DNA of 64,000 nt from Dudresnaya verticillata (taxonomy: Eukaryota), in the NCBI GenBank assembly GCA_977862235.1, contig OZ374565.1, positions 1-64,000 on the forward strand. Reading direction: 5' to 3'. Under the pieces are notes generated by a model, which saw nothing but the letters and a program-made list of their open reading frames with translations, had not been told where the DNA came from and made no database searches. The translations under genes were made by a program, and so were the position numbers. Below, piece after piece: positions 1 to 36,530 of the stretch. Within the stretch, counting starts at the first letter, position 1, and each line of letters starts with the position of its first letter.

Positions 1-1533
1 CCTAAACCCCTAAACCCCTAAACCCCTAAACCCCTAAAACCCCTAAAACCCCTAAACCCCTAAACCCCTAAACCCCTAAACCCCTAAACCCTAAACCCCT
101 AAACCCCTAAACCCCTAAACCCCTAAACCCCTAAACCCCTAAACCCCTAAACCCCTAAACCCCTAAACCCCTAAACCCCTAAACCCCTAAAACCCCTAAA
201 CCCCTAAAACCCCTAAAACCCCTAAAACCCCTAAACCCCTAAACCCCTAAACCCCTAAACCCCTAAACCCCTAAAACCCCTAAACCCCTAAACCCCTAAA
301 CCCCTAAACCCCTAAACCCCTAAACCCCTAAACCCCTAAACCCCTAAACCCCTAAACCCCTAAACCCCTAAACCCCTAAACCCCTAAACCCCTAAACCCC
401 TAAACCCCTAAAACCCCTAAACCCCTAAAACCCTAAAACCCCTAAACCCCTAAAACCCTAAACCCCTAAAACCCCTAAACCCCTAAAACCCCTAAACCCC
501 TAAACCCCTAAACCCCTAAACCCCTAAACCCCTAAACCCCTAAACCCCTAAACCCCTAAACCCCTAAACCCCTAAACCCCTAAACCCCTAAACCCCTAAA
601 CCCCTAAACCCCTAAACCCCTAAACCCCTAAACCCCTAAACCCCTAAACCCCTAAACCCCTAAACCCCTAAACCCCTAAACCCCTAAACCCCTAAACCCC
701 TAAACCCCTAAACCCCTAAACCCCTAAACCCCTAAACCCCTAAACCCCTAAACCCCTAAACCCCTAAACCCCTAAACCCCTAAACCCCTAAACCCCTAAA
801 CCCCTAAAACCCCTAAAACCCCTAAACCCCTAAACCCCTAAACCCCTAAACCCCTAAACCCCTAAACCCCTAAACCCCTAAACCCCTAAACCCCTAAACC
901 CCTAAAACCCCTAAACCCCTAAACCCCTAAACCCCTAAACCCCTAAACCCCTAAACCCCTAAAACCCCTAAACCCCTAAAACCCCTAAACCCCTAAAACC
1001 CCTAAAACCCCTAAACCCCTAAACCCCTAAACCCCTAAACCCCTAAAACCCCCTAAACCCCTAAAACCCCTAAACCCCTAAACCCCTAAACCCCTAAACC
1101 CCTAAAACCTAAACCCCTAAAACCCCTAAAACCCCTAAACCCCTAAAACCCCTAAACCCCTAAAACCCCTAAAACCCCTAAACCCCTAAACCCCTAAAAC
1201 CCCTAAACCCCTAAACCCCTAAACCCCTAAAACCCCTAAACCCCTAAACCCCTAAAACCCTAAACCCCTAAACCCCTAAACCCCTAAACCCCTAAACCCC
1301 TAAACCCCTAAAAACCCCTAAACCCCTAAACCCCTAAACCCCTAAAACCCCTAAACCCCTAAACCCCTAAAACCCCTAAACCCCTAAACCCCTAAAACCC
1401 TAAACCCCTAAAACCCCTAAACCCCTAAAACCCCTAAACCCCTAAACCCCTAAACCCCTAAACCCCTAAACCCCTAAAACCCCTAAAACCCCTAAAAAAA
1501 CCCCTAAAACCCCTAAACCCCTAAACCCCTAAA
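1..1533 (-). repeat. Telomeric repeat tract (CCCCTAAA)n = (TTTAGGGG)n on the minus strand, with CCCCTAAAA and CCCTAAAA variants
   Basis: Uninterrupted 8-9-nt tandem repeat from base 1, C-rich strand on +, as expected at a left chromosome end. Confidence 0.97.
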
Positions 1534-1598
1534 CTCACCTTTGACGGCGGGCGAGCGCGGTCTACTTTTGTCTCTTTTTGCGCCGTCGATCTGCGCCG

Positions 1599-1646
1599 CG
1601 ACGCCGTCGTCGTCGCCGCCGTCGCCGCCGCCGTCGTCGCCGACGG
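1599..1646 (+). repeat. GC-rich (GTC/GCC)n trinucleotide low-complexity tract in the element 5' UTR (present in every copy)
   Basis: cgacgccgtcgtcgtcgccgccgtcgccgccgccgtcgtcgccgacgg. Confidence 0.85.
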
Positions 1647-1679
1647 TCACGCGTTTCCTATTTTGCGCTTACTTTTAAG

Positions 1680-1725
1680 GTGATCCCTCACCTTGAAATT
1701 TGCCCGGGCCCCACTGACTTATCTT
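1680..1725 (-). promoter_or_regulatory. Bipartite 5S internal-control-region / target mimic in the element 5' UTR (box C + box A); also at 6348, 11006, 15666, 20326, 24986, 29646, 53608, 58255, 62902
   Basis: GTGATCCCTCACCT-N22-GACTTATCTT is identical in both blocks and in spacing to 5S gene 35225-35238 / 35261-35270. Copies 3-7 have GACTTGTCTT. Function is not established. Confidence 0.7.
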
Positions 1726-1765
1726 TCTTTCCCTGGCCCTGTACGCGTTTTGCTTGTACCCGGCA

Positions 1766-2460
1766 CAGCCTAGACTCTGTCTAGGCTGCCGTGGACTGTC
1801 GACAGAGGGGTTTCACACCCTTCAACTGACAGATTGGTAAAGGCCAGGCTTGTCCTGTAAAATCTTCCTTCGGGAAGTGCCGAGAGACCTACAAGTGTGG
1901 GAATCGCCAAAGACCCTCGACCTTGAGTGGTAGGCGGCTCGTGACCCACAAGCTCATCGCAGAAACGTGCCAAGCAACGTCGAAGTTGGGGTAACGTGGC
2001 TTAAGCCTGGTGGATCCTGTTTTGAAACCACCCCTTCTAAGATCGAGCGAACGTCCTGCCAGCGAACCTTCGGGGGAGGCCAAAAATCCTGTGGGCACTC
2101 ACAGGTAAACGGTGGTTCTGCGACCCCATTGAGAGCTTGTGCAAACGAGAAGTACCGCGCGTTACAGGACCGCAGTGAAGAGACTCTTCTCAGCTGCGGC
2201 AGGGAAGGGAACGTCCGATAAGTCTACGCGCGAACGCTAACACGTGCGCCCTTTTGCGCGAGCTCGTGCGCAAATTGCGCAAAATCACGCCCTACGCTGC
2301 GAAGAGGCCTTCATCTCGCAGCAAGGCCACCTGTAGCACCCTCTGGAGGTGTCCCGAACAGACTGACGACGGACGACAGGCTTGCGTCCCGGTTAGGAGG
2401 TCTGTGCCCCGAGGGAACCTACTGTAGAGGACCTTTACAGGTACCTTACCCAGCGCTGTA
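1766..2460 (+). ncRNA. Putative highly structured RNA region of the element 5' UTR (identity unknown)
   Basis: 10-bp hairpin 1766-1788; 9-bp long-range helix 1852-1860/2162-2170; CUUCC-UUCG-GGAAG 1864-1877; GCAA-capped stem 2136-2149; further stems 2088-2105, 2170-2199, 2296-2322. Confidence 0.55.
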
Positions 2461-2463
2461 ACC

Positions 2464-5400
2464 ATGATTGGTCAGCAGCACCCCGACATGCCGAAGGTAT
2501 GGCTCTCTCCATGCTTTATGCCTTCGGCAAAACACCGCCCGACAAACAGTACCAGCTGTCCTCTGGGCTGCCAGTCGTCCTCACTGCCTACTGTAGAAGC
2601 GCTACTCATGCACCTGCGGAAGATGCATGTTCCTGGCAGGCGAGGACCACCGACGAGGACCGACATCGAGCCTCTCAAGCAGCAGCTCCTGGACTATGGA
2701 GTATGGTACTGTGTGACTCACAACAAGTACATGCCTACCCACTGTAGCTCCCGCATGAACAGTGAAGGCATGTACAGTATGCGGTACAAGAATTGCAGCG
2801 CATGTCCCGCCACTCGCACTCCGGCGTTCTCCCACGTCCCGTCCAACCAATTGACGACACCGAGCCGTGAAGAAACTGTAGCCGCGCCATCACAGACTCC
2901 TGCTCTGGACGCGGTCACGGAGACGCAACCCGAGGACGGCGAGCCGGCGGACGATATCCTGCCAGCCCCGCGACGAATCCCGGACAGCCAGGAGCCGCCT
3001 CCTGCACCGGTACCAGCTACTCAAGTGGTACCAACTGCGCAAACCCGACACGCTGCGCGGGGTCCAGGAGGGCAGCTTCTGCCGGCGGTCGAAGATATCT
3101 GTCGCTCGCATATCCCTATGGTCACACATATACCGTCTCGCGTGCGCGCAGAGGTGCGCGACGCACTGTCCAAGACGGTATGGGCTTTTACGAACGCAAA
3201 CAACTCTCAGGAAGCCACCAAAGAGCTCACTGCATTCCTGCTTTTTCCAGCAGCCGTCTTGTCCAATCCTCCCGCGGCGAGTGCAAGGGCCGGCGCGTCA
3301 ACCTCTGCGTCCTCGATCGGCACCTTCCGCGATCGAATCCGCCGCTGGGGACTCAAGGATTACGACGCCCTATGGCAGGAGGCCTTGAAGGGCTCGACAT
3401 TCCGTGAGCAGACTGCGCCTTCCGCAGAAGAGCAACGCCGTATCAACGCCTCACGAGCCCTTCGCCTCGCAAAGGAGGGCGCCTACAGTAAGGCAGCAGC
3501 AGCTCTAGACTCTGATGGAATCGCGCCAGCCACAGACTCTGTGATACAGTCCATGAAGGACAAGCACCCACAGTCCGTACCGCAAACCGACGCGGACCAC
3601 GAGCTTGACCAGTCCGAACCGCTGCCGACCATGCCTGACTTTGTGCCTTTCACAGCCGACGAAGTACGAAAAGCAGTGGCCAAGTTCCCCCGGGCTTCGG
3701 CCTCGGGGGGCACAGGACTATCACCGACGCATCTGCAGGAACTGCTCTCAGTCCCGACCACTCACGAGCACACGGGCCTGCTTGGCGGGCTCACCAAAAT
3801 GGTCAACGTGCTGGCCAGCGGCGCAGGACCTGCGGAGCTGTCGCCTTGGATTGCCAGCGCTCCTCTCACGGCTCTGAAGAAGCGCACCGGCGGTGTCCGC
3901 CCCATTGCTGTAGGAGAGACAATCCGACGACTCGTGAGCTCTATGCTCATGACCAGAGTCGCTCCCAAGGCCAAGGCATACCTCGAACCGCTTCAGCTCG
4001 GGGTCGCAACCTCGGGCGGCACAGAAGCGATTGTACACGCGGTCCGGAAGCTGCAGAATTCTCACGGCCATGACAAGTCCTACGGGTTGCTACAAGTGGA
4101 CTTGAAGAATGCCTTCAACCTTGTCAGCCGCAAAGCATTCATGAAGGAGGTCCGCCGACATATGCCTGAACTGCTATCGTGGGTCAGATACTGTTATGAC
4201 TCTGAGGGCCCGCACCTGTGGATGGGTGACACTCTACTGCGGAGTGTCACTGGTGTACAGCAAGGTGACCCGCTCGGGCCGTTACTGTTTGCTTTAGTGC
4301 TGCAGGCACTGATCAAACAGTTGAAGGAACTCACCGCCGACCTGCGGCGCTCGGGCCGCAATCAGCAAGCGGAGGCAGCAAACAACTTGCTGCTGTCACT
4401 GTTCTACCTGGACGACGGCGTCATCGTGGCGAAACACGCCGTACTCAGGAAGGTTCTGTCCTTCTTTGACTCCGAGGAAGCTAAGGGCTACGGCTTCCAC
4501 CTGCGCATGGACAAGTGTACTGTTTGGTGGCCTACTGCACCCGACCCAGAAGACTGCGCTGCCTACCCGTCGGATCTTGGGCAGAGCTACGGAGAAGGCA
4601 CTACAGTACTTCAGGCTCCGATTGGAACGCAGAACTACATGGAGGAGAGCGTGAATGGCCATGTCGAGTCCATCCAGCCCCTGCTGGACGCAATTTCGGG
4701 ACTCGAAGACCTACACGTGGCCATAACTCTACTCCGCAACTGTGCCGGAGTCTGCCGGCTGAACTACCTGCTGCGAGTAGTTCCATCATCCGCCACGGCG
4801 AAGGGCGCCGAGCTCTTCGACCAGAAGATTGAGGCTTGCATGCGCAAGCTCGTGGGAGGAGTCCTACCGAGGGACACCTTCCGCGAACTTCAGCTTCCCC
4901 TGCGCACGAAAGATCCCAGCTTCGGAATCGGTATTTCGGGAGCTGGCGACATGAACTCGAGCGCGTTTTTGGCGTCCCTTTCACTGACCCGCAACTTACT
5001 GCGTTCTATCTTACCCGCTTCTGTGAACACTGCTCTTTCTGACGATCCTTTTGCAGTAGAAGCGCATGAAGACTGGAGCGCCAAGTGCCATAGTGAGGAT
5101 GCCCTGGACCTCGAGAAGATCGACAGCGACGAGTGCCCGCGCCAGCGGGACTTGACGCGGTTGGTACTGAAGAAGGTGCAGGCCGAGCTGCCGCTCGGGG
5201 ACAGGCGGACTCAAGCTTTCCGAGCTTCCCTTGGCGTGCCGGGCGCCAAGGACTGGCTCAAGTGCCAGCCGGCACCAGGCATGAAGACGTACATTGCGGA
5301 TCGGGACTACCGCGTATGGCTTCGATTCTACTGTCGGATTCCACTGCTGGAACCCGACACGGAGTGTCCTCGGGCCGGGTGCAAGAAGATGATGGATGTT

Positions 5401-5952
5401 CACGGCGACCATCTGCTGATTTGTCCGAACGGCATGCGGAACAGCGGATCTCCTCGGTCGTGGCGCCACGACTCTCAGGTTCGTCTGCTGGCTTCGGATC
5501 TGAAACGTGCGACACGCACCCCGACTGTGGAGCCCCGCCCTGTGGGGGCTCACCTGGATCGGCCGGACATCAAGGCGCTTGGAACAGAAGGAGGAACGGA
5601 CTACCTGGACGTCACAATCAGTCATCCACTGTCGTCAGAACAACGCATTCTCAGCTGCATAACAAACCCGCAAGGGACGCTGAAGAACGCCCACGCTGAC
5701 AAGGTGCGGACTTACCGTGGCTTCATCCAGGCTGCCGGACCGGGGGCAAGACTTGTGCCGGTGCCGATGACCACACTAGGTGGCTGGCACCCGGAGGCGC
5801 ACAAGTATATGCAAGAGTTGGCGGATACCGTGGCTTCTCGGGCCATGGTAACTCGCGGTGTTTCGCGAGCGGCTCTGTTCCACAGGCACGCGGCGCGACT
5901 GGTGCAGAACAACGTCAAGTGCCTGATGGAAGGGATCCAACAGGAGGTGTAG
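2464..5952 (+). CDS. Retrotransposon polyprotein, 1162 aa: N-terminal C2H2 zinc finger, reverse transcriptase, CCHC knuckle, restriction-like endonuclease
   Basis: C-x3-C-x13-H-x4-H; GVRPIAVGE, QLGV..GGTEA, DLKNAFN, GVQQGDPLGPLLF, YLDD; C-x4-C-x9-H-x3-C, RHD, RPD..LDVTI..K..Y. Confidence 0.97.
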   Translation: MIGQQHPDMPKVWLSPCFMPSAKHRPTNSTSCPLGCQSSSLPTVEALLMHLRKMHVPGRRGPPTRTDIEPLKQQLLDYGVWYCVTHNKYMPTHCSSRMNSEGMYSMRYKNCSACPATRTPAFSHVPSNQLTTPSREETVAAPSQTPALDAVTETQPEDGEPADDILPAPRRIPDSQEPPPAPVPATQVVPTAQTRHAARGPGGQLLPAVEDICRSHIPMVTHIPSRVRAEVRDALSKTVWAFTNANNSQEATKELTAFLLFPAAVLSNPPAASARAGASTSASSIGTFRDRIRRWGLKDYDALWQEALKGSTFREQTAPSAEEQRRINASRALRLAKEGAYSKAAAALDSDGIAPATDSVIQSMKDKHPQSVPQTDADHELDQSEPLPTMPDFVPFTADEVRKAVAKFPRASASGGTGLSPTHLQELLSVPTTHEHTGLLGGLTKMVNVLASGAGPAELSPWIASAPLTALKKRTGGVRPIAVGETIRRLVSSMLMTRVAPKAKAYLEPLQLGVATSGGTEAIVHAVRKLQNSHGHDKSYGLLQVDLKNAFNLVSRKAFMKEVRRHMPELLSWVRYCYDSEGPHLWMGDTLLRSVTGVQQGDPLGPLLFALVLQALIKQLKELTADLRRSGRNQQAEAANNLLLSLFYLDDGVIVAKHAVLRKVLSFFDSEEAKGYGFHLRMDKCTVWWPTAPDPEDCAAYPSDLGQSYGEGTTVLQAPIGTQNYMEESVNGHVESIQPLLDAISGLEDLHVAITLLRNCAGVCRLNYLLRVVPSSATAKGAELFDQKIEACMRKLVGGVLPRDTFRELQLPLRTKDPSFGIGISGAGDMNSSAFLASLSLTRNLLRSILPASVNTALSDDPFAVEAHEDWSAKCHSEDALDLEKIDSDECPRQRDLTRLVLKKVQAELPLGDRRTQAFRASLGVPGAKDWLKCQPAPGMKTYIADRDYRVWLRFYCRIPLLEPDTECPRAGCKKMMDVHGDHLLICPNGMRNSGSPRSWRHDSQVRLLASDLKRATRTPTVEPRPVGAHLDRPDIKALGTEGGTDYLDVTISHPLSSEQRILSCITNPQGTLKNAHADKVRTYRGFIQAAGPGARLVPVPMTTLGGWHPEAHKYMQELADTVASRAMVTRGVSRAALFHRHAARLVQNNVKCLMEGIQQEV

Positions 5953-6082
5953 ATGTGCAAGTTGTCTTGAGTTGGGGTTTAACTTTGGTGTGATACTAGA
6001 GTAGATTGTACGTCGAAAAATATTAGAATATGATCACCTGTTATAAAGTTGAACTCACCTCAGATAAAGTTGAACTCACCTC

Positions 6083-9000
6083 GGCGATCTGCCGAAAATT
6101 TTGTTTCGCGGATATCTCAACAAGTTCTGCACCGATCTTTTCGGCGGCGGTGCCGCCTGTTCGAGCGCGCGACGGCGCGTCGGTGCGGGGTTTTTCAGCC
6201 CTTCACCTTTGACGGCGGGCGAGCGCGGTCTACTTTTGTCTCTTTTTGCGCCGTCGATCTGCGCCGCGACGCCGTCGTCGTCGCCGCCGTCGCCGCCGCC
6301 GTCGTCGCCGACGGTCACGCGTTTCCTATTTTGCGCTTACTTTTAAGGTGATCCCTCACCTTGAAATTTGCCCGGGCCCCACTGACTTATCTTTCTTTCC
6401 CTGGCCCTGTACGCGTTTTGCTTGTACCCGGCACAGCCTAGACTCTGTCTAGGCTGCCGTGGACTGTCGACAGAGGGGTTTCACACCCTTCAACTGACAG
6501 ATTGGTAAAGGCCAGGCTTGTCCTGTAAAATCTTCCTTCGGGAAGTGCCGAGAGACCTACAAGTGTGGGAATCGCCAAAGACCCTCGACCTTGAGTGGTA
6601 GGCGGCTCGTGACCCACAAGCTCATCGCAGAAACGTGCCAAGCAACGTCGAAGTTGGGGTAACGTGGCTTAAGCCTGGTGGATCCTGTTTTGAAACCACC
6701 CCTTCTAAGATCGAGCGAACGTCCTGCCAGCGAACCTTCGGGGGAGGCCAAAAATCCTGTGGGCACTCACAGGTAAACGGTGGTTCTGCGACCCCATTGA
6801 GAGCTTGTGCAAACGAGAAGTACCGCGCGTTACAGGACCGCAGTGAAGAGACTCTTCTCAGCTGCGGCAGGGAAGGGAACGTCCGATAAGTCTACGCGCG
6901 AACGCTAACACGTGCGCCCTTTTGCGCGAGCTCGTGCGCAAATTGCGCAATCTCACGCCCTACGCTGCGAAGAGGCCTTCATCTCGCAGCAAGGCCACCT
7001 GTAGCACCCTCTGGAGGTGTCCCGAACAGACTGACGACGGACGACAGGCTTGCGTCCCGGTTAGGAGGTCTGTGCCCCGAGGGAACCTACTGTAGAGGAC
7101 CTTTACAGGTACCTTACCCAGCGCTGTAACCATGATTGGTCAGCAGCACCCCGACATGCCGAAGGTATGGCTCTCTCCATGCTTTATGCCTTCGGCAAAA
7201 CACCGCCCGACAAACAGTACCAGCTGTCCTCTGGGCTGCCAGTCGTCCTCACTGCCTACTGTAGAAGCGCTACTCATGCACCTGCGGAAGATGCATGTTC
7301 CTGGCAGGCGAGGACCACCGACGAGGACCGACATCGAGCCTCTCAAGCAGCAGCTCCTGGACTATGGAGTATGGTACTGTGTGACTCACAACAAGTACAT
7401 GCCTACCCACTGTAGCTCCCGCATGAACAGTGAAGGCATGTACAGTATGCGGTACAAGAATTGCAGCGCATGTCCCGCCACTCGCACTCCGGCGTTCTCC
7501 CACGTCCCGTCCAACCAATTGACGACACCGAGCCGTGAAGAAACTGTAGCCGCGCCATCACAGACTCCTGCCCTGGACGCGGTCACGGAGACGCAACCCG
7601 AGGACGGCGAGCCGGCGGACGATATCCTGCCAGCCCCGCGACGAATCCCGGACAGCCAGGAGCCGCCTCCTGCACCGGTACCAGCTACTCAAGTGGTACC
7701 AACTGCGCAAACCCGACACGCTGCGCGGGGTCCAGGAGGGCAGCTTCTGCCGGCGGTCGAAGATATCTGTCGCTCGCATATCCCTATGGTCACACATATA
7801 CCGTCTCGCGTCCGCGCAGAGGTGCGCGACGCACTGTCCAAGACGGTATGGGCTTTTACGAACGCAAACAACTCTCAGGAAGCCACCAAAGAGCTCACTG
7901 CATTCCTGCTTTTTCCAGCAGCCGTCTTGTCCAATCCTCCCGCGGCGAGTGCAAGGGCCGGCGCGTCAACCTCTGCGTCCTCGATCGGCACCTTCCGCGA
8001 TCGAATCCGCCGCTGGGGACTCAAGGATTACGACGCCCTATGGCAGGAGGCCTTGAAGGGCTCGACATTCCGTGAGCAGACTGCGCCTTCCGCAGAAGAG
8101 CAACGCCGTATCAACGCCTCACGAGCCCTTCGCCTCGCAAAGGAGGGCGCCTACAGTAAGGCAGCAGCAGCTCTAGACTCTGATGGAATCGCCCCAGCCA
8201 CAGACTCTGTGATACAGTCCATGAAGGACAAGCACCCACAGTCCGTACCGCAAACCGACGCGGACCACGAGCTTGACCAGTCCGAACCGCTGCCGACCAT
8301 GCCTGACTTTGTGCCTTTCACAGCCGACGAAGTACGAAAAGCAGTGGCCAAGTTCCCCCGGGCTTCGGCCTCGGGGGGCACAGGACTATCACCGACCCAT
8401 CTGCAGGAACTGCTCTCAGTCCCGACCACTCACGAGCACACGGGCCTGCTTGGCGGGCTCACCAAAATGGTCAACGTGCTGGCCAGCGGCGCAGGACCTG
8501 CGGAGCTGTCGCCTTGGATTGCCAGCGCTCCTCTCACGGCTCTGAAGAAGCGCACCGGCGGTGTCCGCCCCATTGCTGTAGGAGAGACAATCCGACGACT
8601 CGTGAGCTCTATGCTCATGACCAGAGTCGCTCCCAAGGCCAAGGCATACCTCGAACCGCTTCAGCTCGGGGTCGCAACCTCGGGCGGCACAGAAGCCATT
8701 GTACACGCGGTCCGGAAGCTGCAGAAGTCTCACGGCCATGACAAGTCCTACGGGTTGCTACAAGTGGACTTGAAGAATGCCTTCAACCTTGTCAGCCGCA
8801 AAGCATTCATGAAGGAGGTCCGCCGACATATGCCTGAACTACTACCGTGGGTCAGATTCTGTTATGACTCTGAGGGCCCGCACCTGTGGATGGGTGACAC
8901 TCTACTGCGGAGTGTCACTGGTGTACAGCAAGGTGACCCGCTCGGGCCGTTACTGTTTGCTTTGGTGCTGCAGGCACTGATCAAACAGTTGAAGGAACTC

Positions 9001-10721: not shown

Positions 10722-10735
10722 CTCACCTCAGTACT
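10722..10735. other. 14-bp 5S-derived target sequence CTCACCTCAGTACT between tandem elements (TSD-like); also 15382, 20042, 24702, 29362, 57984, 62631; partial at 6054, 6075, 53327
   Basis: Identical to 5S gene 35232-35245. Confidence 0.88.
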
Positions 10736-15381: not shown

Positions 15382-15395
15382 CTCACCTCAGTACT

Positions 15396-20041: not shown

Positions 20042-20055
20042 CTCACCTCAGTACT

Positions 20056-24701: not shown

Positions 24702-24715
24702 CTCACCTCAGTACT

Positions 24716-27700
24716 CCCTCAGCGATCTGCCGAAATTTTTGTTTCGCGGATATCTCAACAAGTTCTGCACCGATCTTTTCGGCGGCGGTGCCGCCTGTTC
24801 GAGCGCGCGACGGCGCGTCGGTGCGGGGTTTTTCAGCCCTTCACCTTCGCGGGCGGGCGAGCGCGGTCTACTTTTGTCTCTTTCCGCGCCGCCGATCTGC
24901 GCCGCGACGCCGTCGTCGTCGCCGCCGTCGCCGCCGCCGTCGTCGCCGACGGTCACGCGTTTCCTATTTTGCGCTTACTTTTAAGGTGATCCCTCACCTT
25001 GAAATTTGCCCGGGCCCCACTGACTTGTCTTTCTTTCCCTGGCCCTGTACGCGTTTTGCTTGTACCCGGCACAGCCTAGACTCTGTCTAGGCTGCCGTGG
25101 ACTGTCGACAGAGGGGTTTCACACCCTTCAACTGACAGATTGGTAAAGGCCAGGCTTGTCCTGTAAAATCTTCCTTCGGGAAGTGCCGAGAGACCTACAA
25201 GTGTGGGAATCGCCAAAGACCCTCGACCTTGAGTGGTAGGCGGCTCGTGACCCACAAGCTCATCGCAGAAACGTGCCAAGCAACGTCGAAGTTGGGGTAA
25301 CGTGGCTTAAGCCTGGTGGATCCTGTTTTGAAACCACCCCTTCTAAGATCGAGCGAACGTCCTGCCAGCGAACCTTCGGGGGAGGCCAAAAATCCTGTGG
25401 GCACTCACAGGTAAACGGTGGTTCTGCGACCCCATTGAGAGCTTGTGCAAACGAGAAGTACCGCGCGTTACAGGACCGCAGTGAAGAGAGTCTTCTCAGC
25501 TGCGGCAGGGAAGGGAACGTCCGATAACTCTGCGCGCACGAACGCTAACACGCGCGCCCTTTTGCGCGAGCTCGTGCGCAAAGTGCGCGATCTCGCGCCC
25601 TACGCTGCGAAGAGGCCCTCATCTCGCAGCAAGGCCACCTGTAGCACCCTCTGGAGGTGTCCCGAACAGACTGACGACGGACGACAGGCTTGCGTCCCGG
25701 TTAGGAGGTCTGTGCCCCGTGGGAACCTACTGTAGAGGACCTTTACAGGTACCTTACCCAGCGCTGTAACCATGATTGGTCAGCAGCACCCCGACATGCC
25801 GAAGGTATGGCTCTCTCCATGCTTTATGCCTTCGGCAAAACACCGCCCGACAAACAGTACCAGCTGTCCTCTGGGCTGCCAGTCGTCCTCACTGCCTACT
25901 GTAGAAGCGCTACTCATGCACCTGCGGAAGATGCATGTTCCTGGCAGGCGAGGACCACCGACGAGGACCGACATCGAGCCTCTCAAGCAGCAGCTCCTGG
26001 ACTATGGAGTATGGTACTGTGTGACTCACAACAAGTACATGCCCACCCACTGTAGCTCCCGCATGAACAGTGAAGGCATGTACAGTATGCGGTACAAGAA
26101 TTACAGCGCATGTCCCGCTACTCGCACTCCGGCGTTCTCCCACGTCCCGTCCAACCAATTGACGACACCGAGCCGTGAAGAAACTGTAGCCGCGCCATCA
26201 CAGTCTCCTGCTCTGGACGCGGTCACGGAGACGCAACCCGAGGACGGCGAGCCAGCGGACGATATCCTGCCAGCCCCGCGACGAATCCCGGACAGCCAGG
26301 AGCCGCCTCCTGCACCGGTACCTGCTACTCGAGAGGTACCAACTGCGCAAACCCCACCCGTTGCGCGGGGTCCAGGAGGGCAGCTTCTGCCGGCGGTCGA
26401 AGACATCTGTCGCTCGCATATCCCTATGGTCACACATATACCGTCTCGCGTCCGCGCCGAGGTGCGCGACGCACTGTCCAAGACGGTATGGGCTTTTACG
26501 AACGCAACCAACTCTCAGGAAGCCACCAAAGAGCTCACTGCATTCCTGCTTTTTCCAGCAGCCGTCTTGTCCAATCCTCCCGCCGCGAGTGCAAGGGCCA
26601 GCGCGTCAACCTCTGCGTCCTCGATCGGCACCTTCCGCGATCGAATCCGACGCTGGGGACTCAAGGATTACGACGCCCTATGGCAGGAGGCCTTGAAGGG
26701 CTCGACATTCCGTGAGCAGACTGCGCCTTCCGCAGAAGAGCAACGCCGTATCAATGCCTCACGAGCCCTTCGCCTTGCAAAGGAGGGCGCCTACAGTAAG
26801 GCAGCAGCAGCTCTAGACTCTGATGGAATCGCCCCAGCCACAGACTCTGTGATACAGTCCATGAAGGACAAGCACCCGCAGTCCGTACCGCAAACCGACG
26901 CGGACCACGAGCTTGACCAGTCCGAACCGCTGCCGACCATGCCTGACTTCGTGCCTTTCACAGCCGACGAAGTACGAAAAGCAGTGGCCAAGTTCCCCCG
27001 GGCTTCGGCCTCGGGGGGAACAGGACTATCACCGACCCATCTGCAGGAACTGCTCTCAGTCCCGACCACTCACGAGCACACGGGCCTGCTTGGCGGGCTC
27101 ACCAAAATGGTCAACGTGCTGGCCAGCGGCGCAGGACCTGCGGAGCTGTCGCCTTGGATTGCCAGCGCTCCTCTCACGGCTCTGAAGAAGCGCACCGGCG
27201 GTGTCCGCCCCATTGCTGTAGGAGAGACAATCCGACGACTCGTGAGCTCTATGCTCATGACCAGAGTCGCTCCCAAGGCCAAGGCATACCTCGAACCGCT
27301 TCAGCTCGGGGTCGCAACCTCGGGCGGCACAGAAGCCATTGTACACGCGGTCCGGAAGCTGCAGAATTCTCACGGCCATGACAAGTCCTACGGGTTGCTA
27401 CAAGTGGACTTGAAGAATGCCTTCAACCTTGTCAGCCGCAAAGCATTCATGAAGGAGGTCCGCCGACATATGCCTGAACTACTACCGTGGGTCAGATACT
27501 GTTATGACTCTGAGGGCCCGCACCTGTGGATGGGTGACACTCTACTGCGGAGTGTCACTGGTGTACAGCAAGGTGACCCGCTCGGGCCGTTACTGTTTGC
27601 TTTGGTGCTGCAGGCACTGATCAAACAGTTGAAGGAACTCACCGCCGACCTGCGGCGCTCGGGCCGCAATCAGCAAGCGGAGGGGGCGAACAACTTGCTG

Positions 27701-29361
27701 CTGTCACTGTTCTACCTGGACGACGGCGTCATCGTGGCGAAACACGCCGTACTCAGGAAGGTTCTGTCCTTCTTTGACTCCGAGGAAGCTAAGGGCTATG
27801 GCTTCCACCTGCGCATGGACAAGTGTACTGTTTGGTGGCCTACTGCACCCGACCCAGAAGACTGCGCTGCCTACCCGTCGGATCTTGGGCAGAGCTACGG
27901 AGAAGGCACTACAGTACTTCAGGCTCCGATTGGAACGCAGAACTACATGGAGGAGAGCGTGAATGGCCATGTCGAGTCCATCCAGCCCCTGCTGGACGCA
28001 ATTTCGGGACTAGAAGACCTACACGTGGCCATCACTCTACTCCGCAACTGTGCCGGAGTCTGCCGGCTGAACTACCTGCTGCGAGTAGTTCCATCATCCG
28101 CCACGGCAAAGGGCGCCGAGCTCTTCGACCAGAAGATTGAGGCTTGCATGCGCAAGCTCGTGGGAGGAGTCCTACCGAGGGACACCTTCCGCGAACTTCA
28201 GCTTCCCCTGCGCACGAAAGAGCCCAGCTTCGGAATCGGTATTTCGGGAGCTGGCGACATGAACTCGAGCGCGTTTTTGGCGTCCCTTTCACTGACCCGC
28301 AACTTACTGCGTTCTATCTTACCCGCTTCTGTGAACACTGCTCTTTCTGACGATCCTTTTGCAGTAGAAGCGCACGAAGACTGGAGCGCCAAGTGCCATA
28401 GTGAGGATGCTCTGGACCTGGAGAAGATCGACAGCGACGAGTGCCCGCGCCAGCGGGACTTGACGCGGTTGGTTCTGAAGAAAGTGCAAGCCGAGCTGCC
28501 GCTCGGGGACAGGCGGACGCAAGCTTTCCGAGCTTCCCTTGGCGCGCCGGGCGCCAAGGACTGGCTCAAGTGCCAGCCGGCACCAGGCATGAAGACGTAC
28601 ATTGCGGATCGGGACTACCGCGTATGGCTTCGATTCTACTGTCGGATTCCACTGCTGGAACCCGACACGGAGTGTCCTCGGGCCGGGTGCAAGAAGATGA
28701 TGGATGTTCACGGCGACCATCTGCTGATTTGTCCGAACGGCATGCGGAACAGCGGATCTCCTCGGTCGTGGCGCCACGACTCTCAGGTTCGTCTGCTGGC
28801 TTCGGATCTGAAACGTGCGACACGCACCCCGATTGTGGAGCCCCGCCCTGTGGGGGCTCACCTGGATCGGCCGGACATCAAGGCGCTTGGAACAGAAGGA
28901 GGAACGGACTACCTGGACGTCACAATCAGTCATCCACTGTCGTCAGAACAACGCATTCTCAGCTGCATAACAAACCCGCAAGGGACGCTGAAGAACGCCC
29001 ACGCTGACAAGGTGCGGACTTACCGTGGCTTCATCCAGGCTGCCGGACCGGGGGCAAGACTTGTGCCGGTGCCGATGACCACACTAGGTGGCTGGCACCC
29101 GGAGGCGCACAAGTACATGCAAGAGTTGGCGGATACTGTGGCTTCTCGGGCCATGGTAACTCGCGGTGTTTCGCGAGCGGCTCTATTCCACAGGCACGCG
29201 GCGCGACTGGTGCAGAACAACGTCAAGTGCCTGATGGAAGGGATCCAACAGGAGGTGTAGATGTGCAAGTTGTTTTGAGTTGGGGTTTAACTTTGTTGTG
29301 ATACTACAGTAGATTGTACGTCGACAAATATTAGAATATGATCACCTGTTATAAAGTTGAA
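24716..29361 (+). mobile_element. RLE non-LTR retrotransposon, copy 6
   Basis: 4660-bp period repeat. Confidence 0.95.
25772..29260 (+). CDS. Retrotransposon RT/RLE polyprotein, 1162 aa
   Basis: Intact ORF, same motifs. Confidence 0.97.
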   Translation: MIGQQHPDMPKVWLSPCFMPSAKHRPTNSTSCPLGCQSSSLPTVEALLMHLRKMHVPGRRGPPTRTDIEPLKQQLLDYGVWYCVTHNKYMPTHCSSRMNSEGMYSMRYKNYSACPATRTPAFSHVPSNQLTTPSREETVAAPSQSPALDAVTETQPEDGEPADDILPAPRRIPDSQEPPPAPVPATREVPTAQTPPVARGPGGQLLPAVEDICRSHIPMVTHIPSRVRAEVRDALSKTVWAFTNATNSQEATKELTAFLLFPAAVLSNPPAASARASASTSASSIGTFRDRIRRWGLKDYDALWQEALKGSTFREQTAPSAEEQRRINASRALRLAKEGAYSKAAAALDSDGIAPATDSVIQSMKDKHPQSVPQTDADHELDQSEPLPTMPDFVPFTADEVRKAVAKFPRASASGGTGLSPTHLQELLSVPTTHEHTGLLGGLTKMVNVLASGAGPAELSPWIASAPLTALKKRTGGVRPIAVGETIRRLVSSMLMTRVAPKAKAYLEPLQLGVATSGGTEAIVHAVRKLQNSHGHDKSYGLLQVDLKNAFNLVSRKAFMKEVRRHMPELLPWVRYCYDSEGPHLWMGDTLLRSVTGVQQGDPLGPLLFALVLQALIKQLKELTADLRRSGRNQQAEGANNLLLSLFYLDDGVIVAKHAVLRKVLSFFDSEEAKGYGFHLRMDKCTVWWPTAPDPEDCAAYPSDLGQSYGEGTTVLQAPIGTQNYMEESVNGHVESIQPLLDAISGLEDLHVAITLLRNCAGVCRLNYLLRVVPSSATAKGAELFDQKIEACMRKLVGGVLPRDTFRELQLPLRTKEPSFGIGISGAGDMNSSAFLASLSLTRNLLRSILPASVNTALSDDPFAVEAHEDWSAKCHSEDALDLEKIDSDECPRQRDLTRLVLKKVQAELPLGDRRTQAFRASLGAPGAKDWLKCQPAPGMKTYIADRDYRVWLRFYCRIPLLEPDTECPRAGCKKMMDVHGDHLLICPNGMRNSGSPRSWRHDSQVRLLASDLKRATRTPIVEPRPVGAHLDRPDIKALGTEGGTDYLDVTISHPLSSEQRILSCITNPQGTLKNAHADKVRTYRGFIQAAGPGARLVPVPMTTLGGWHPEAHKYMQELADTVASRAMVTRGVSRAALFHRHAARLVQNNVKCLMEGIQQEV

Positions 29362-29375
29362 CTCACCTCAGTACT

Positions 29376-32300
29376 CCCTCAGCGATCTGCCGAAATTTTT
29401 GTTTCGCGGATATCTCAACAAGTTCTGCACCGATCTTTTCGGCGGCGGTGCCGCCTGTTCGAGCGCGCGACGGCGCGTCGGTGCGGGGTTTTTCAGCCCT
29501 TCACCTTCGCGGGCGGGCGAGCGCGGTCTACTTTTGTCTCTTTCCGCGCCGCCGATCTGCGCCGCGACGCCGTCGTCGTCGCCGCCGTCGCCGCCGCCGT
29601 CGTCGCCGACGGTCACGCGTTTCCTATTTTGCGCTTACTTTTAAGGTGATCCCTCACCTTGAAATTTGCCCGGGCCCCACTGACTTGTCTTTCTTTCCCT
29701 GGCCCTGTACGCGTTTTGCTTGTACCCGGCACAGCCTAGACTCTGTCTAGGCTGCCGTGGACTGTCGACAGAGGGGTTTCACACCCTTCAACTGACAGAT
29801 TGGTAAAGGCCAGGCTTGTCCTGTAAAATCTTCCTTCGGGAAGTGCCGAGAGACCTACAAGTGTGGGAATCGCCAAAGACCCTCGACCTTGAGTGGTAGG
29901 CGGCTCGTGACCCACAAGCTCATCGCAGAAACGTGCCAAGCAACGTCGAAGTTGGGGTAACGTGGCTTAAGCCTGGTGGATCCTGTTTTGAAACCACCCC
30001 TTCTAAGATCGAGCGAACGTCCTGCCAGCGAACCTTCGGGGGAGGCCAAAAATCCTGTGGGCACTCACAGGTAAACGGTGGTTCTGCGACCCCATTGAGA
30101 GCTTGTGCAAACGAGAAGTACCGCGCGTTACAGGACCGCAGTGAAGAGAGTCTTCTCAGCTGCGGCAGGGAAGGGAACGTCCGATAACTCTGCGCGCACG
30201 AACGCTAACACGCGCGCCCTTTTGCGCGAGCTCGTGCGCAAAGTGCGCGATCTCGCGCCCTACGCTGCGAAGAGGCCCTCATCTCGCAGCAAGGCCACCT
30301 GTAGCACCCTCTGGAGGTGTCCCGAACAGACTGACGACGGACGACAGGCTTGCGTCCCGGTTAGGAGGTCTGTGCCCCGTGGGAACCTACTGTAGAGGAC
30401 CTTTACAGGTACCTTACCCAGCGCTGTAACCATGATTGGTCAGCAGCACCCCGACATGCCGAAGGTATGGCTCTCTCCATGCTTTATGCCTTCGGCAAAA
30501 CACCGCCCGACAAACAGTACCAGCTGTCCTCTGGGCTGCCAGTCGTCCTCACTGCCTACTGTAGAAGCGCTACTCATGCACCTGCGGAAGATGCATGTTC
30601 CTGGCAGGCGAGGACCACCGACGAGGACCGACATCGAGCCTCTCAAGCAGCAGCTCCTGGACTATGGAGTATGGTACTGTGTGACTCACAACAAGTACAT
30701 GCCCACCCACTGTAGCTCCCGCATGAACAGTGAAGGCATGTACAGTATGCGGTACAAGAATTACAGCGCATGTCCCGCTACTCGCACTCCGGCGTTCTCC
30801 CACGTCCCGTCCAACCAATTGACGACACCGAGCCGTGAAGAAACTGTAGCCGCGCCATCACAGTCTCCTGCTCTGGACGCGGTCACGGAGACGCAACCCG
30901 AGGACGGCGAGCCAGCGGACGATATCCTGCCAGCCCCGCGACGAATCCCGGACAGCCAGGAGCCGCCTCCTGCACCGGTACCTGCTACTCGAGAGGTACC
31001 AACTGCGCAAACCCCACCCGTTGCGCGGGGTCCAGGAGGGCAGCTTCTGCCGGCGGTCGAAGACATCTGTCGCTCGCATATCCCTATGGTCACACATATA
31101 CCGTCTCGCGTCCGCGCCGAGGTGCGCGACGCACTGTCCAAGACGGTATGGGCTTTTACGAACGCAACCAACTCTCAGGAAGCCACCAAAGAGCTCACTG
31201 CATTCCTGCTTTTTCCAGCAGCCGTCTTGTCCAATCCTCCCGCCGCGAGTGCAAGGGCCAGCGCGTCAACCTCTGCGTCCTCGATCGGCACCTTCCGCGA
31301 TCGAATCCGACGCTGGGGACTCAAGGATTACGACGCCCTATGGCAGGAGGCCTTGAAGGGCTCGACATTCCGTGAGCAGACTGCGCCTTCCGCAGAAGAG
31401 CAACGCCGTATCAATGCCTCACGAGCCCTTCGCCTTGCAAAGGAGGGCGCCTACAGTAAGGCAGCAGCAGCTCTAGACTCTGATGGAATCGCCCCAGCCA
31501 CAGACTCTGTGATACAGTCCATGAAGGACAAGCACCCGCAGTCCGTACCGCAAACCGACGCGGACCACGAGCTTGACCAGTCCGAACCGCTGCCGACCAT
31601 GCCTGACTTCGTGCCTTTCACAGCCGACGAAGTACGAAAAGCAGTGGCCAAGTTCCCCCGGGCTTCGGCCTCGGGGGGAACAGGACTATCACCGACCCAT
31701 CTGCAGGAACTGCTCTCAGTCCCGACCACTCACGAGCACACGGGCCTGCTTGGCGGGCTCACCAAAATGGTCAACGTGCTGGCCAGCGGCGCAGGACCTG
31801 CGGAGCTGTCGCCTTGGATTGCCAGCGCTCCTCTCACGGCTCTGAAGAAGCGCACCGGCGGTGTCCGCCCCATTGCTGTAGGAGAGACAATCCGACGACT
31901 CGTGAGCTCTATGCTCATGACCAGAGTCGCTCCCAAGGCCAAGGCATACCTCGAACCGCTTCAGCTCGGGGTCGCAACCTCGGGCGGCACAGAAGCCATT
32001 GTACACGCGGTCCGGAAGCTGCAGAATTCTCACGGCCATGACAAGTCCTACGGGTTGCTACAAGTGGACTTGAAGAATGCCTTCAACCTTGTCAGCCGCA
32101 AAGCATTCATGAAGGAGGTCCGCCGACATATGCCTGAACTACTACCGTGGGTCAGATACTGTTATGACTCTGAGGGCCCGCACCTGTGGATGGGTGACAC
32201 TCTACTGCGGAGTGTCACTGGTGTACAGCAAGGTGACCCGCTCGGGCCGTTACTGTTTGCTTTGGTGCTGCAGGCACTGATCAAACAGTTGAAGGAACTC

Positions 32301-34021
32301 ACCGCCGACCTGCGGCGCTCGGGCCGCAATCAGCAAGCGGAGGGGGCGAACAACTTGCTGCTGTCACTGTTCTACCTGGACGACGGCGTCATCGTGGCGA
32401 AACACGCCGTACTCAGGAAGGTTCTGTCCTTCTTTGACTCCGAGGAAGCTAAGGGCTATGGCTTCCACCTGCGCATGGACAAGTGTACTGTTTGGTGGCC
32501 TACTGCACCCGACCCAGAAGACTGCGCTGCCTACCCGTCGGATCTTGGGCAGAGCTACGGAGAAGGCACTACAGTACTTCAGGCTCCGATTGGAACGCAG
32601 AACTACATGGAGGAGAGCGTGAATGGCCATGTCGAGTCCATCCAGCCCCTGCTGGACGCAATTTCGGGACTAGAAGACCTACACGTGGCCATCACTCTAC
32701 TCCGCAACTGTGCCGGAGTCTGCCGGCTGAACTACCTGCTGCGAGTAGTTCCATCATCCGCCACGGCAAAGGGCGCCGAGCTCTTCGACCAGAAGATTGA
32801 GGCTTGCATGCGCAAGCTCGTGGGAGGAGTCCTACCGAGGGACACCTTCCGCGAACTTCAGCTTCCCCTGCGCACGAAAGAGCCCAGCTTCGGAATCGGT
32901 ATTTCGGGAGCTGGCGACATGAACTCGAGCGCGTTTTTGGCGTCCCTTTCACTGACCCGCAACTTACTGCGTTCTATCTTACCCGCTTCTGTGAACACTG
33001 CTCTTTCTGACGATCCTTTTGCAGTAGAAGCGCACGAAGACTGGAGCGCCAAGTGCCATAGTGAGGATGCCCTGGACCTGGAGAAGATCGACAGCGACGA
33101 GTGCCCGCGCCAGCGGGACTTGACGCGGTTGGTTCTGAAGAAAGTGCAAGCCGAGCTGCCGCTCGGGGACAGGCGGACGCAAGCTTTCCGAGCTTCCCTT
33201 GGCGTGCCGGGCGCCAAGGACTGGCTCAAGTGCCAGCCGGCACCAGGCATGAAGACGTACATTGCGGATCGGGACTACCGCGTATGGCTTCGATTCTACT
33301 GTCGGATTCCACTGCTGGAACCCGACACGGAGTGTCCTCGGGCCGGGTGCAAGAAGATGATGGATGTTCACGGCGACCATCTGCTGATTTGTCCGAACGG
33401 CATGCGGAACAGCGGATCTCCTCGGTCGTGGCGCCACGACTCTCAGGTTCGTCTGCTGGCTTCGGATCTGAAACGTGCGACACGCACCCCGATTGTGGAG
33501 CCCCGCCCTGTGGGGGCTCACTTGGATCGGCCGGACATCAAGGCGCTTGGAACAGAAGGAGGAACGGACTACCTGGACGTCACAATCAGTCATCCACTGT
33601 CGTCAGAACAACGCATTCTCAGCTGCATAACAAACCCGCAAGGGACGCTGAAGAACGCCCACGCTGACAAGGTGCGGACTTACCGTGGCTTCATCCAGGC
33701 TGCCGGACCGGGGGCAAGGCTTGTGCCGGTGCCGATGACCACACTAGGTGGCTGGCACCCGGAGGCGCACAAGTATATGCAAGAGTTGGCGGATACCGTG
33801 GCTTCTCGGGCCATGGTAACTCGCGGTGTTTCGCGAGCGGCTCTGTTCCACAGGCACGCGGCGCGACTGGTGCAGAACAACGTCAAGTGCCTGATGGAAG
33901 GGATCCAACAGGAGGTGTAGATGTGCAGGTTGTTTTGAGTTGGGGTTTAACTTTGTTGTGATACTACAGTAGATTGTACGTCGACAAATATTAGAATATG
34001 GTCACCTGTTATAAAGTTGAA
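29376..34021 (+). mobile_element. RLE non-LTR retrotransposon, copy 7; 3' end joined directly into a 5S rRNA gene
   Basis: ...ATAAAGTTGAA|CTCACCTCAGTACTAAACCAGCC..., continuing as 5S sequence. Confidence 0.95.
30432..33920 (+). CDS. Retrotransposon RT/RLE polyprotein, 1162 aa
   Basis: Intact ORF, same motifs. Confidence 0.97.
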   Translation: MIGQQHPDMPKVWLSPCFMPSAKHRPTNSTSCPLGCQSSSLPTVEALLMHLRKMHVPGRRGPPTRTDIEPLKQQLLDYGVWYCVTHNKYMPTHCSSRMNSEGMYSMRYKNYSACPATRTPAFSHVPSNQLTTPSREETVAAPSQSPALDAVTETQPEDGEPADDILPAPRRIPDSQEPPPAPVPATREVPTAQTPPVARGPGGQLLPAVEDICRSHIPMVTHIPSRVRAEVRDALSKTVWAFTNATNSQEATKELTAFLLFPAAVLSNPPAASARASASTSASSIGTFRDRIRRWGLKDYDALWQEALKGSTFREQTAPSAEEQRRINASRALRLAKEGAYSKAAAALDSDGIAPATDSVIQSMKDKHPQSVPQTDADHELDQSEPLPTMPDFVPFTADEVRKAVAKFPRASASGGTGLSPTHLQELLSVPTTHEHTGLLGGLTKMVNVLASGAGPAELSPWIASAPLTALKKRTGGVRPIAVGETIRRLVSSMLMTRVAPKAKAYLEPLQLGVATSGGTEAIVHAVRKLQNSHGHDKSYGLLQVDLKNAFNLVSRKAFMKEVRRHMPELLPWVRYCYDSEGPHLWMGDTLLRSVTGVQQGDPLGPLLFALVLQALIKQLKELTADLRRSGRNQQAEGANNLLLSLFYLDDGVIVAKHAVLRKVLSFFDSEEAKGYGFHLRMDKCTVWWPTAPDPEDCAAYPSDLGQSYGEGTTVLQAPIGTQNYMEESVNGHVESIQPLLDAISGLEDLHVAITLLRNCAGVCRLNYLLRVVPSSATAKGAELFDQKIEACMRKLVGGVLPRDTFRELQLPLRTKEPSFGIGISGAGDMNSSAFLASLSLTRNLLRSILPASVNTALSDDPFAVEAHEDWSAKCHSEDALDLEKIDSDECPRQRDLTRLVLKKVQAELPLGDRRTQAFRASLGVPGAKDWLKCQPAPGMKTYIADRDYRVWLRFYCRIPLLEPDTECPRAGCKKMMDVHGDHLLICPNGMRNSGSPRSWRHDSQVRLLASDLKRATRTPIVEPRPVGAHLDRPDIKALGTEGGTDYLDVTISHPLSSEQRILSCITNPQGTLKNAHADKVRTYRGFIQAAGPGARLVPVPMTTLGGWHPEAHKYMQELADTVASRAMVTRGVSRAALFHRHAARLVQNNVKCLMEGIQQEV

Positions 34022-34110
34022 CTCACCTCAGTACTAAACCAGCCTGACGAGACTTATCTTCGCAGTTCGGGATGGGATACGGAGCATGTCTGCGTAGTAT
34101 GGCCGAATGT
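34022..34110 (-). pseudogene. 5S rRNA gene truncated by retrotransposon insertion (nt 1-89 retained)
   Basis: Identical to 35232-35320; nt 90-120 and the terminator are replaced by the element 3' end. Confidence 0.93.
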
Positions 34111-35187
34111 GCTTGCTGTTCCCGCCGTACCCCTATTTAAATGCGCCATCAACTGCACTCCCCGTCATCGACTAAAGACTCCTGCGTCCAATGTCCATCC
34201 CACTGTAGTGTACACGTGGAGCATTATAGTAGTGACTCATAACCGTATACCATTTACTCTAAACGCAGGATCCAATATAAATACGGTGAACCAGCTCATG
34301 GACGTTCTGACCCCTTGGTTCAATGAAACCAGCACCCAATCTAATTTACAGAGCCCCTAGATCCAATCCTATAACGCTTTGACTTCTGTTGATCCAATCC
34401 ATCCACCCTTATTGGATCCGAACCTGATGCATTCCGTGATTTATATTACTGCATTGTACTATACTTTCTCATCCTTCCCTTTCCATTTCCTCATCCTTAC
34501 TCCTTTCCTTCCCACTCTCTGCACCCCTAAACGCGTTAAAATGACACATCCCTAACACCCCTAAACCCACCCATAACCATACGTGCCCCAAACCCCGATT
34601 TAACCCGCTCAAAAGCTGCCGACGGCCCGTGGGGACGTTTTGCACCATAGAAACGCGCTAAAAAGTCGATTTAGGAGGGTAAGAGCGCTACGCAATGCGC
34701 AGCAACGAGACGCTTCGATTGAGCTACTGAACAGCGCCCGAGCCCCAGCCGTTCCAAAGTTATGAGCACAAACGTCCAAGCCACCCTCACCCCAGCCACC
34801 AGACTTGATCCGATTGTGGTGATCCTTGATCCAATCTTCTGGGTACTAAATCTAATCCAATTCTATGTCCCTAAATCCAATTCATCCACCACACTGATCC
34901 ATTCCATCCACCACCATGATTCACTCCATGCACCAACACTAGACCCTTTACCCTCCCAATATCATGCCCCTCGCGTACCAGAGTAACCAAACTAACCGTA
35001 GACCTAACCCTAAACAACCCCTAGACACCTGCAAACACTCTCAGACTCCCTCCCACTTACAAGAAAAGGGGAAAAGTGCGAGTGAAAAGAATACGCTGTA
35101 CAGAGGCAGTGGGTCGGGGATTCTGCGGGAGAGGTATGCAAGGCAGCAATGTACGCAGAGGGCGGCGGGGAGGAAGGAATGAGGTGC

Positions 35188-35200
35188 AAAAAAATAAAAA
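35188..35200 (-). terminator. Pol III oligo-T terminator of the 5S gene (in each intact unit)
   Basis: TTTTTATTTTTTT on the minus strand directly after the gene 3' end. Confidence 0.88.
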
Positions 35201-35320
35201 ACATTCGGCACTGGCGATTCCAGAGTGATCCCTCACCTCAGTACTAAACCAGCCTGACGAGACTTATCTTCGCAGTTCGGGATGGGATACGGAGCATGTC
35301 TGCGTAGTATGGCCGAATGT
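35201..35320 (-). rRNA. 5S rRNA
   Basis: Minus strand ACATTCGGCCATAC...CCCATCCCGAACTGCGAAGATAAG...TTAGTACTGAGGTGAGGGATCACTCTGGAATC...GCCGAATGT; 120 nt; terminal helix ACATTCGGC/GCCGAATGT; oligo-T follows. Confidence 0.96.
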
Positions 35321-35343
35321 GCTTGCTGTTCCCGCCGTACCCC

Positions 35344-35351
35344 TATTTAAA
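35344..35351 (-). promoter_or_regulatory. TATA-like element at about -24 to -31 of the 5S gene (in each unit)
   Basis: TTTAAATA on the minus strand at the usual upstream position for 5S genes. Confidence 0.6.
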
Positions 35352-36410: not shown

Positions 36411-36530
36411 ACATTCGGCACTGGCGATTCCAGAGTGATCCCTCACCTCAGTACTAAACCAGCCTGACGAGACTTATCTTCGCAGTTCGGGATGGGATAC
36501 GGAGCATGTCTGCGTAGTATGGCCGAATGT
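36411..36530 (-). rRNA. 5S rRNA
   Basis: Repeat of 35201-35320. Confidence 0.95.

Follow-up and report, generated by a model that had tools for sequence, protein, structure and literature searches.

A chromosome end with an array of retrotransposons beside 5S rRNA genes

The first 64,000 nucleotides of contig OZ374565.1 of Dudresnaya verticillata (GenBank assembly GCA_977862235.1, forward strand; hereafter the window) begin with a telomere, run through seven head-to-tail copies of a retrotransposon and then enter an array of 5S rRNA genes. The locus raises the question of whether this element has become part of the machinery of the chromosome end, as a sequence-only reading of the same DNA had proposed when it took the array for a buffer or extender working alongside telomerase, or whether it is a parasite of 5S genes that has come to lie there. 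We consider the second answer probable. The element is an intact retrotransposon with a single open reading frame (ORF) and the fold of R2, combining a reverse transcriptase (RT) with a restriction-like endonuclease (RLE) and likely of the CRE clade. It is likely specific for 5S genes through nicking and target-primed reverse transcription, would have been multiplied by recombination, and was left at the tip after a likely distal loss and re-capping by telomerase.

All complete copies end at one nucleotide of the 5S gene

Seven same-orientation copies (D1 to D7, counted from the telomere; + strand) fill positions 1535-34021, as the sequence-only reading had stated, with 3' ends at 6053, 10721, 15381, 20041, 24701, 29361 and 34021. 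Self-comparison gives a period of 4660 bp over 1535-34035, a unit of about 4.66 kb, and each copy holds an open stop-to-stop frame of 1174 residues. D1 (1535-6053; open frame 2428-5952) differs from D7 at 66 positions in 4475 aligned bases, and D2 (6085-10721; open frame 7096-10620), which is full length, at 52. D3 to D6 (10722-29361; starts at 10722, 15382, 20042 and 24702) are 4660 bp each, with the 14-bp 5S target and 7 bp at each start. D7 (29362-34021; open frame 30396-33920) is full length, has a 101-bp 3' untranslated region (UTR) without poly(A), and ends on the 5S target.

The nine complete 3' ends in the window, those of D1 to D7 and of two copies of an interior array described below (P1 and P2), all abut the same 5S nucleotide, nt 89/90, in antisense, although four of the nine repeat a single junction. 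Downstream of D7 the 5S gene runs intact from nt 89 to nt 1 (34022-34110, - strand), so that the disrupted gene comprises nt 1-89 only, with a cut Rfam match at 33993-34110. The target 14-mer (34022-34035) is 5S nt 76-89. It recurs, followed by 7 bp, at five of the six junctions between distal copies, and it also joins P1 to P2 and P2 to P3. The exception is the D1/D2 junction (6054-6084, + strand), where two 10-bp pieces of target, the second with one mismatch, flank 11 bp from the element's own 3' end; this amounts to a 21-bp duplication, possibly the trace of an abortive re-insertion. The earlier statement that only 5S sequence separates the copies therefore stands for nearly all junctions but not strictly, given the 11 bp of element at D1/D2. 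Taken together the junctions are what one would expect if the element had inserted again and again at a target that each insertion restores, duplicating 10-14 bp. The site falls in the Pol III internal promoter region of the 5S gene, and the 5' end of this gene is similar to that of red-algal 5S.

Two absences that had been noted earlier were confirmed. No occurrence of CCCCTAAA, CCCTAAA or TTTAGGG was found in 1535-34021, so no telomeric repeats lie between the copies. The sequence distal to the cut 5S gene shares no 10-mer with 5S nt 90-121 and no 15-mer with the spacer, so that the 3' part of the gene and any distal 5S units are missing.

The interior array has the same polarity

The 5S array itself (34111-53316, - strand) contains 15 intact genes (35200-35320 to 52140-52260), each matching Rfam RF00001 with 91.9 bits, in a 1210-bp unit. 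The 15 units are identical, with 0 differences over 1210 bp, and self-comparison extends the 1210-bp period over 34022-53316. Beyond these 15 genes, 19 kb further in, lies a second, interior array of at least 2.3 copies (53345-64000, + strand), which the sequence-only finding did not include and which alters its meaning. It has the orientation of the distal one and is made up of P1 (to 57983), P2 (57984-62630) and P3 (62631 to the window end) with the 14-bp 5S target between them; the 4.66-kb unit starts again at 53327. At its 5' junction (53317-53344, + strand) 65 bp of the 5S unit, comprising the spacer end, terminator and gene 3' end, have been lost, and a 10-nt filler is followed by junction sequence of the D3-D7 type. 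Because this interior array shares the polarity of the distal array, polarity follows the 5S gene and is no evidence of a role at the telomere. The 5' ends of P2 and P3 (57984-58060 and 62631-62700) are 13 bp shorter than those of P1 and D3-D7 and carry several changes.

The element encodes an R2-like protein under purifying selection

The single ORF (2428-5952 in D1, + strand), whose first Met is residue 13, encodes a C2H2-like motif at residues 44-67, an RT at 484-700 and a CCHC plus RLE motif at 980-1061. The RT matches Pfam RVT_1 with an E value of 5.4e-17, and no other Pfam family, nor an apurinic endonuclease (APE), was found in the protein. The N-terminal motif, C-x3-C-x14-H-x4-H, lies where model confidence is low and has no Pfam match. 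A motif search with relaxed spacing located the endonuclease residues RHD, E, RPD and D behind the CCHC knuckle. Their spacers are 4, 9, 3, 13, 19, 9 and 13 residues, the first, second and fourth being 1-3 residues longer than in the CRE1/2-SLACS pattern, taken as quoted in PMC12857005. The relaxed pattern is present in 21 of 120 homologues, including 18 of the 24 closest.

The whole protein was modelled, with the endonuclease domain compared as part of the full chain (predicted local distance difference test 85.1; 78 of the 120 aligned sequences used). The top seven Foldseek matches of the model are R2 proteins, which are also the best sequence matches in PDB. In VIA alignments R2 chains cover model residues 249-1173 with Z scores of 16.6-18.5 and root-mean-square deviations of 4.6-6.7; LINE-1 ORF2p scores equally high over the RT part (Z up to 18.8). 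On the strength of its motifs and this predicted structure the element is an RLE-type non-LTR (long terminal repeat) retrotransposon with an R2 fold, and its architecture and RT motifs make membership of the CRE clade likely. In a tree of 120 sequences the element and the 24 closest database proteins (ranks 1-24, 36-57% identity) form one clade of 25 with support of 1.0.

All nine complete copies (D1 to D7, P1 and P2) keep the frame open, and the ratio of nonsynonymous to synonymous differences (pN/pS) between D1 and D7 is 0.139 (Fisher p 2e-10), which indicates a family replicating under purifying selection.

The 5' UTR of each copy carries 14 nt that match the antisense strand of 5S where it spans the insertion site (29646-29659 in D7, 1680-1693 in D1, + strand), placed within an 11-bp hairpin; a match of at least 14 nt to the 5S gene arose in 5 of 2000 shuffles. 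It may descend from a junction captured long ago, or mimic the target. The first 399 nt of the element (29362-29760) fold strongly (z -5.2). A search for a ribozyme in the 5' UTR gave no Rfam family, with two weak matches below threshold.

Probable growth of the distal array by recombination

D4, D5 and D6 show no differences, and one site separates D3 from them. A single breakpoint accounts for 57 of the 58 sites informative between D2 and D7, D4 being D7-like at its 5' side and D2-like at its 3' side, a fit equalled in 0 of 20000 permutations. The crossover falls at alignment columns 3790-3861 (9834-9905 in D2). Since D3 to D6 are chimeras of their neighbours D2 and D7, four of the seven copies derive from recombination, or from over-assembly of copy number, and not from transposition, and the 32 kb reduces to three founder copies. 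Repeated exchange between adjacent D2 and D7 is the expected source of such copies and fits what is found; in the study of MoTeR elements identical junctions were likewise argued to indicate amplification through D-loops or break-induced replication (10.1101/845669). A chimeric master element inserting four times exactly between its two parents would be less economical than exchange.

Over about 4475 sites D7 shows 6 differences from P1, against 52 from D2 and 66 from D1. The copy adjoining the live target, and not the one at the tip, is thus the closest to the interior family, which fits growth of the array from inside, opposite to that of HeT-A/TART; it does not amount to proof, because D1 and D2 may be sister lineages. 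Between D1 and D2 (1535-10721) only 5 of 38 differences fall in the 5' 2.3 kb, with 33 beyond, a split in divergence that points to an older recombination event.

How far the assembly itself can be trusted bears on these counts. It could be partly artefactual, with the number of D3-D6 copies or of 5S units wrong, or with terminal and interior arrays from different loci or haplotypes joined across the perfect 19-kb 5S repeat. The count of seven depends on a near-perfect repeat of 23 kb (9835-33070), five-fold and with one mismatch at period 4660, and the 15 identical 1210-bp units form another; repeats of such lengths exceed common accurate reads. No sequencing run was found in support of the assembly. 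Against such an artefact, the telomere/D1, D1/D2, D7/5S and 5S/P1 junctions are each locally unique, the sequences of D3-D7, P1 and P2 are free of N and of indel noise, and neither the private site of D3 nor a patch at the crossover, where one D2 allele stands in D7-type sequence, would be made by a simple graph loop. We regard this explanation as unlikely for the locus, though the exact copy number of D3-D6 may have been estimated by the assembly.

The chromosome end is capped by telomerase-type repeats

The telomere (1-1534) occupies the start of the window as 1534 bp of C-rich strand, (CCCCTAAA)n with CCCCTAAAA variants, in 187.9 copies of period 8. Its repeat is similar to the TTTTTAGGGG reported for the red alga Bostrychia (10.1101/2025.02.11.637652). 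Of 187 units 146 have three A and 39 have four, 0 of 186 full units have fewer than two C, and the innermost partial unit is a lone C. Units with more than three A increase inward, numbering 7/46, 6/47, 12/47 and 16/47 by quarter from the outer end; they are either real variant repeats or read errors.

D1 adjoins this telomere directly and lacks the 118 bp of 5' end seen in D2 (position 1535 corresponds to 6203 in D2, whose body starts at 6085), in agreement with the earlier description of a 5'-truncated, capped distal copy. Across the junction (1534-1540, + strand) the sequence matches the opening 7 nt of the 5S target, and 6 of these are common to the element. The 7-nt match needs the last telomeric C, the element itself carrying T there, and the junction hexamer occurs 6 times per 4668-bp D2 unit. 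A nick at what remained of a target, or at a site resembling it, could have left a G-ended strand that telomerase then extended in register. This idea was formed post hoc, from one base and one junction, and we offer it as a lead only. Ordinary breakage and healing, of the kind described for MoTeR and rDNA ends of Magnaporthe (10.1101/845669), suffices to explain the cap.

In its strongest form the idea would make the element's endonuclease a telomere-seeding enzyme. The 5S nick would leave a G-ended 3'-OH toward the chromosome end, extendable by the element's own RT or by telomerase; 5S arrays would be built-in sites of breakage and healing, and several chromosome ends of this organism would regularly be laid out as telomere-element-5S. 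The footprint of the seeding nick would then be seen at 1534-1540, where the telomere starts exactly at target base 1 in the register of a G-ended primer. We find this proposal unlikely. The 5S spacer contains two CCCCTAAA and two more CCCTAAA motifs per unit, in telomere orientation, which are possible seeds for telomere healing.

A proposed course of events for the locus

The 5S genes of the window are transcribed toward the telomere, and the element has the antisense orientation. If the 5S sense strand is nicked first, the exposed 3'-OH would point at the chromosome end, and reverse transcription from it, by the target-primed mechanism established for such elements (PMC5537684), would necessarily put the element's 5' end outward. 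Each insertion would restore the downstream target, duplicating 10-14 bp, and later insertions would line up head-to-tail on the inner side. Transposition would be needed for no more than three distinct 3' junctions, D1/D2, D2/D7 and D7/5S. A single unequal exchange or break-induced-replication loop involving D7 and D2, followed by its repetition, would have given D3 to D6. A break at the 5' end of D1, possibly by the element's own nick at the target-like 7-mer, would have removed all distal 5S sequence before the end was healed; healing of 5'-truncated copies is likewise described for MoTeR (10.1101/845669). Any lengthening of the end by the array would be a by-product only.

The contrary view, that the array is a co-opted buffer or extender, supposes a general telomere-element-5S layout with arrays favoured by selection for extending or protecting the ends in parallel with telomerase. 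In its favour, the entire sub-telomeric space consists of intact copies, 32.5 kb in all, with 5' ends outward, and insertion at the inner junction does shift the tip outward. Cnl1 arrays, moreover, lie at 27/28 and 28/28 ends in two Cryptococcus strains, for which a role in bypassing telomerase has been suggested (10.1101/2021.08.11.455996). The 3' ends, however, are primed at 5S and not at an end, the interior array has the same polarity, four copies come from one crossover, and 187 units of telomerase-type repeat, 1.5 kb in all, are already present. Nor does either strand of D7 contain a G-quadruplex motif by a simple pattern, in contrast to most telomeric elements in PMC10088271, where a different method was used. 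The role of extender that the sequence-only reading had assigned to the array is thus not supported, and co-option in general seems to us quite unlikely; a passive buffer follows trivially from the array's position.

A further alternative is that the array was built elsewhere and that a broken 5S array or end captured it, telomere included, by ectopic recombination or break-induced replication. The D1 and D2 lineages are 1.1-1.5% from D7 and the P copies and have a common 5' half (5 of their 38 differences in the first 2.3 kb), and the D-type junction sequence at the 5' end of P1 implies that sequence moves between arrays. On the other side, D7 meets the 5S gene precisely at its 3' end and hardly differs from the interior copies, and a 5S-specific element would still be required; we judge capture very improbable. 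Segmental duplication or a satellite is rejected on account of the intact RT-RLE frames and target junctions, and end priming of the Penelope/Athena type on account of the endonuclease and the R2 fold.

Relatives and points that weigh against 5S specificity

Several results count against a 5S-specific retrotransposon as the source of the array. The specificity is read from one locus, and dispersed copies elsewhere would weaken it. The target-site duplication is deduced from element-element junctions, the window holding no insertion with 5S intact on both sides. The strict CRE/SLACS endonuclease spacing is not matched by the element, the pattern being so narrow that 0 of 120 homologues match it. 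The divergence of D1 and D2 was rejected as a measure of insertion age, its changes being mostly synonymous and having arisen under selection. The reads that were found, one run (X1, share 0.08) with a few low-depth pieces of element or spacer, bridge no junction and give no evidence either way.

Relatives were surveyed at 129 loci, the best 80 of 462 metagenome loci and 49 in prokaryote-labelled assemblies, most of them short and about 30% identical. A search with nhmmer detected a 5S gene beside none of the 129, many contigs ending near the ORF. The only close relative with long flanks (L002, 39% identity) is broken and lies among protein-coding frames. With no 5S beside the relatives and this context for L002, the survey does not establish 5S targeting as a trait of the clade.

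The same survey found no telomere-type repeat run beside any of the 129 loci, no Rfam family beside the 59 that were scanned, and no relatives in viral contigs. A gene beside L002 is a thioredoxin according to an atlas look-up. Two close relatives (P0006 and P0007) have an Ulp1-type protease domain (PF02902), and a similar frame can be seen by eye upstream in L002 (4541-5800); the window element is without one. The 49 loci in bacteria-labelled assemblies (L081-L129) are likely contamination from eukaryotic hosts.

Comparison with known systems

R2, Utopia and CRE1/SLACS share the architecture and strategy of the present element, being site-specific RLE elements of multicopy RNA genes. SLACS and CRE1 target spliced-leader genes. 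R2 and Utopia differ in their targets, 28S and U2, and R2 is 16-17% identical to the element in structural alignments. Occasional tandem insertion in U2 genes is reported for Utopia-1_NVit (PMC4640811). Insertion within 5S rRNA genes is known from Mutsu of zebrafish (PMC5340908) and Dada-5S of fish (PMC8869645), both sequence-specific. Mutsu, however, is described with two ORFs, poly(A), L1 names in Repbase and sites in the 5' half of 5S (PMC5340908), and Dada is a DNA transposon (PMC8869645), whereas here a single ORF with an R2-like fold is found and the site is nt 89/90.

Among elements at chromosome ends, MoTeR1 of Magnaporthe (Pyricularia) oryzae and FoTeR of Fusarium oxysporum are alike in their single ORF with RT and restriction-like endonuclease, tandem end arrays, 5'-truncated terminal copies capped de novo and recombinational amplification (10.1101/845669; PMC12857005). 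They target telomere repeats and keep interstitial repeats between copies, whereas here both the target and the spacer between copies are 5S gene sequence and there is an interior array too. The sequence-only reading had likened the locus to several end arrays, and in layout the likeness to GilM/GilT and Cnl1 holds; the role of a HeT-A/TART-like extender is not supported. GilM and GilT of Giardia, placed in the CRE clade by RT (PMC10088271), are head-to-tail and unidirectional between subtelomere and telomere repeats, some of them 5'-truncated (PMC5537684, PMC10999387), but are described there as telomeric, with long 3' UTRs and targeting given as not known, in contrast to the 101-bp 3' UTR and defined 5S site found here. 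Cnl1 of Cryptococcus neoformans also forms subtelomeric arrays, which measure 5-80 kb, can grow or shrink and have telomere repeats on their distal side; it differs in occupying nearly all ends of hypermutator strains and in entering genes, and the available part of the account mentions no 5S target (10.1101/2021.08.11.455996). HeT-A, TART and TAHRE of Drosophila are head-to-tail with 5' ends outward, but there telomerase is absent, the proteins are an APE-type Pol and Gag, and attachment to the end apparently proceeds without a nick (PMC5537684). Here the 3' ends lie at 5S nt 89/90, 187.9 telomere repeats are present, there is an interior array, and poly(A) is lacking. By their defining features the element belongs to none of HeT-A/TART, MoTeR and Mutsu. 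It works as a site-specific parasite of RNA genes, like R2, Utopia and CRE, while its array at the end behaves like a MoTeR array.

Significance

Known elements that target 5S genes include Mutsu (PMC5340908) and Dada-5S (PMC8869645); a 2024 review states that no transposable-element insertion within a 5S gene had been reported to its authors' knowledge, yet lists Mutsu in its table (PMC10946416). In fungi and in Giardia, CRE-type elements have been described in arrays that carry a telomere cap (10.1101/845669, PMC12857005, PMC10088271, PMC5537684). Neither an RLE or CRE element in 5S genes nor such arrays in red algae were found in the literature, which was covered mostly through open papers and without Repbase, so that supplementary target tables may already list a 5S-specific CRE family. 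What appears to be new is an RLE-type element that targets the 5S gene; the clean record of recombination is also of interest, a telomere function is not.

Insertion into 5S genes is rare, and an intact, compact RLE element adds a target to the class of enzymes used for site-specific gene insertion, one that can be tested directly in vitro. The locus further indicates that outward-facing, telomere-capped arrays can come from an rDNA parasite together with recombination, and so counsels caution in reading them as telomere systems. If it were true that the element's nick seeds telomerase, target-primed reverse transcription and de novo telomere addition would be linked at one 3'-OH.

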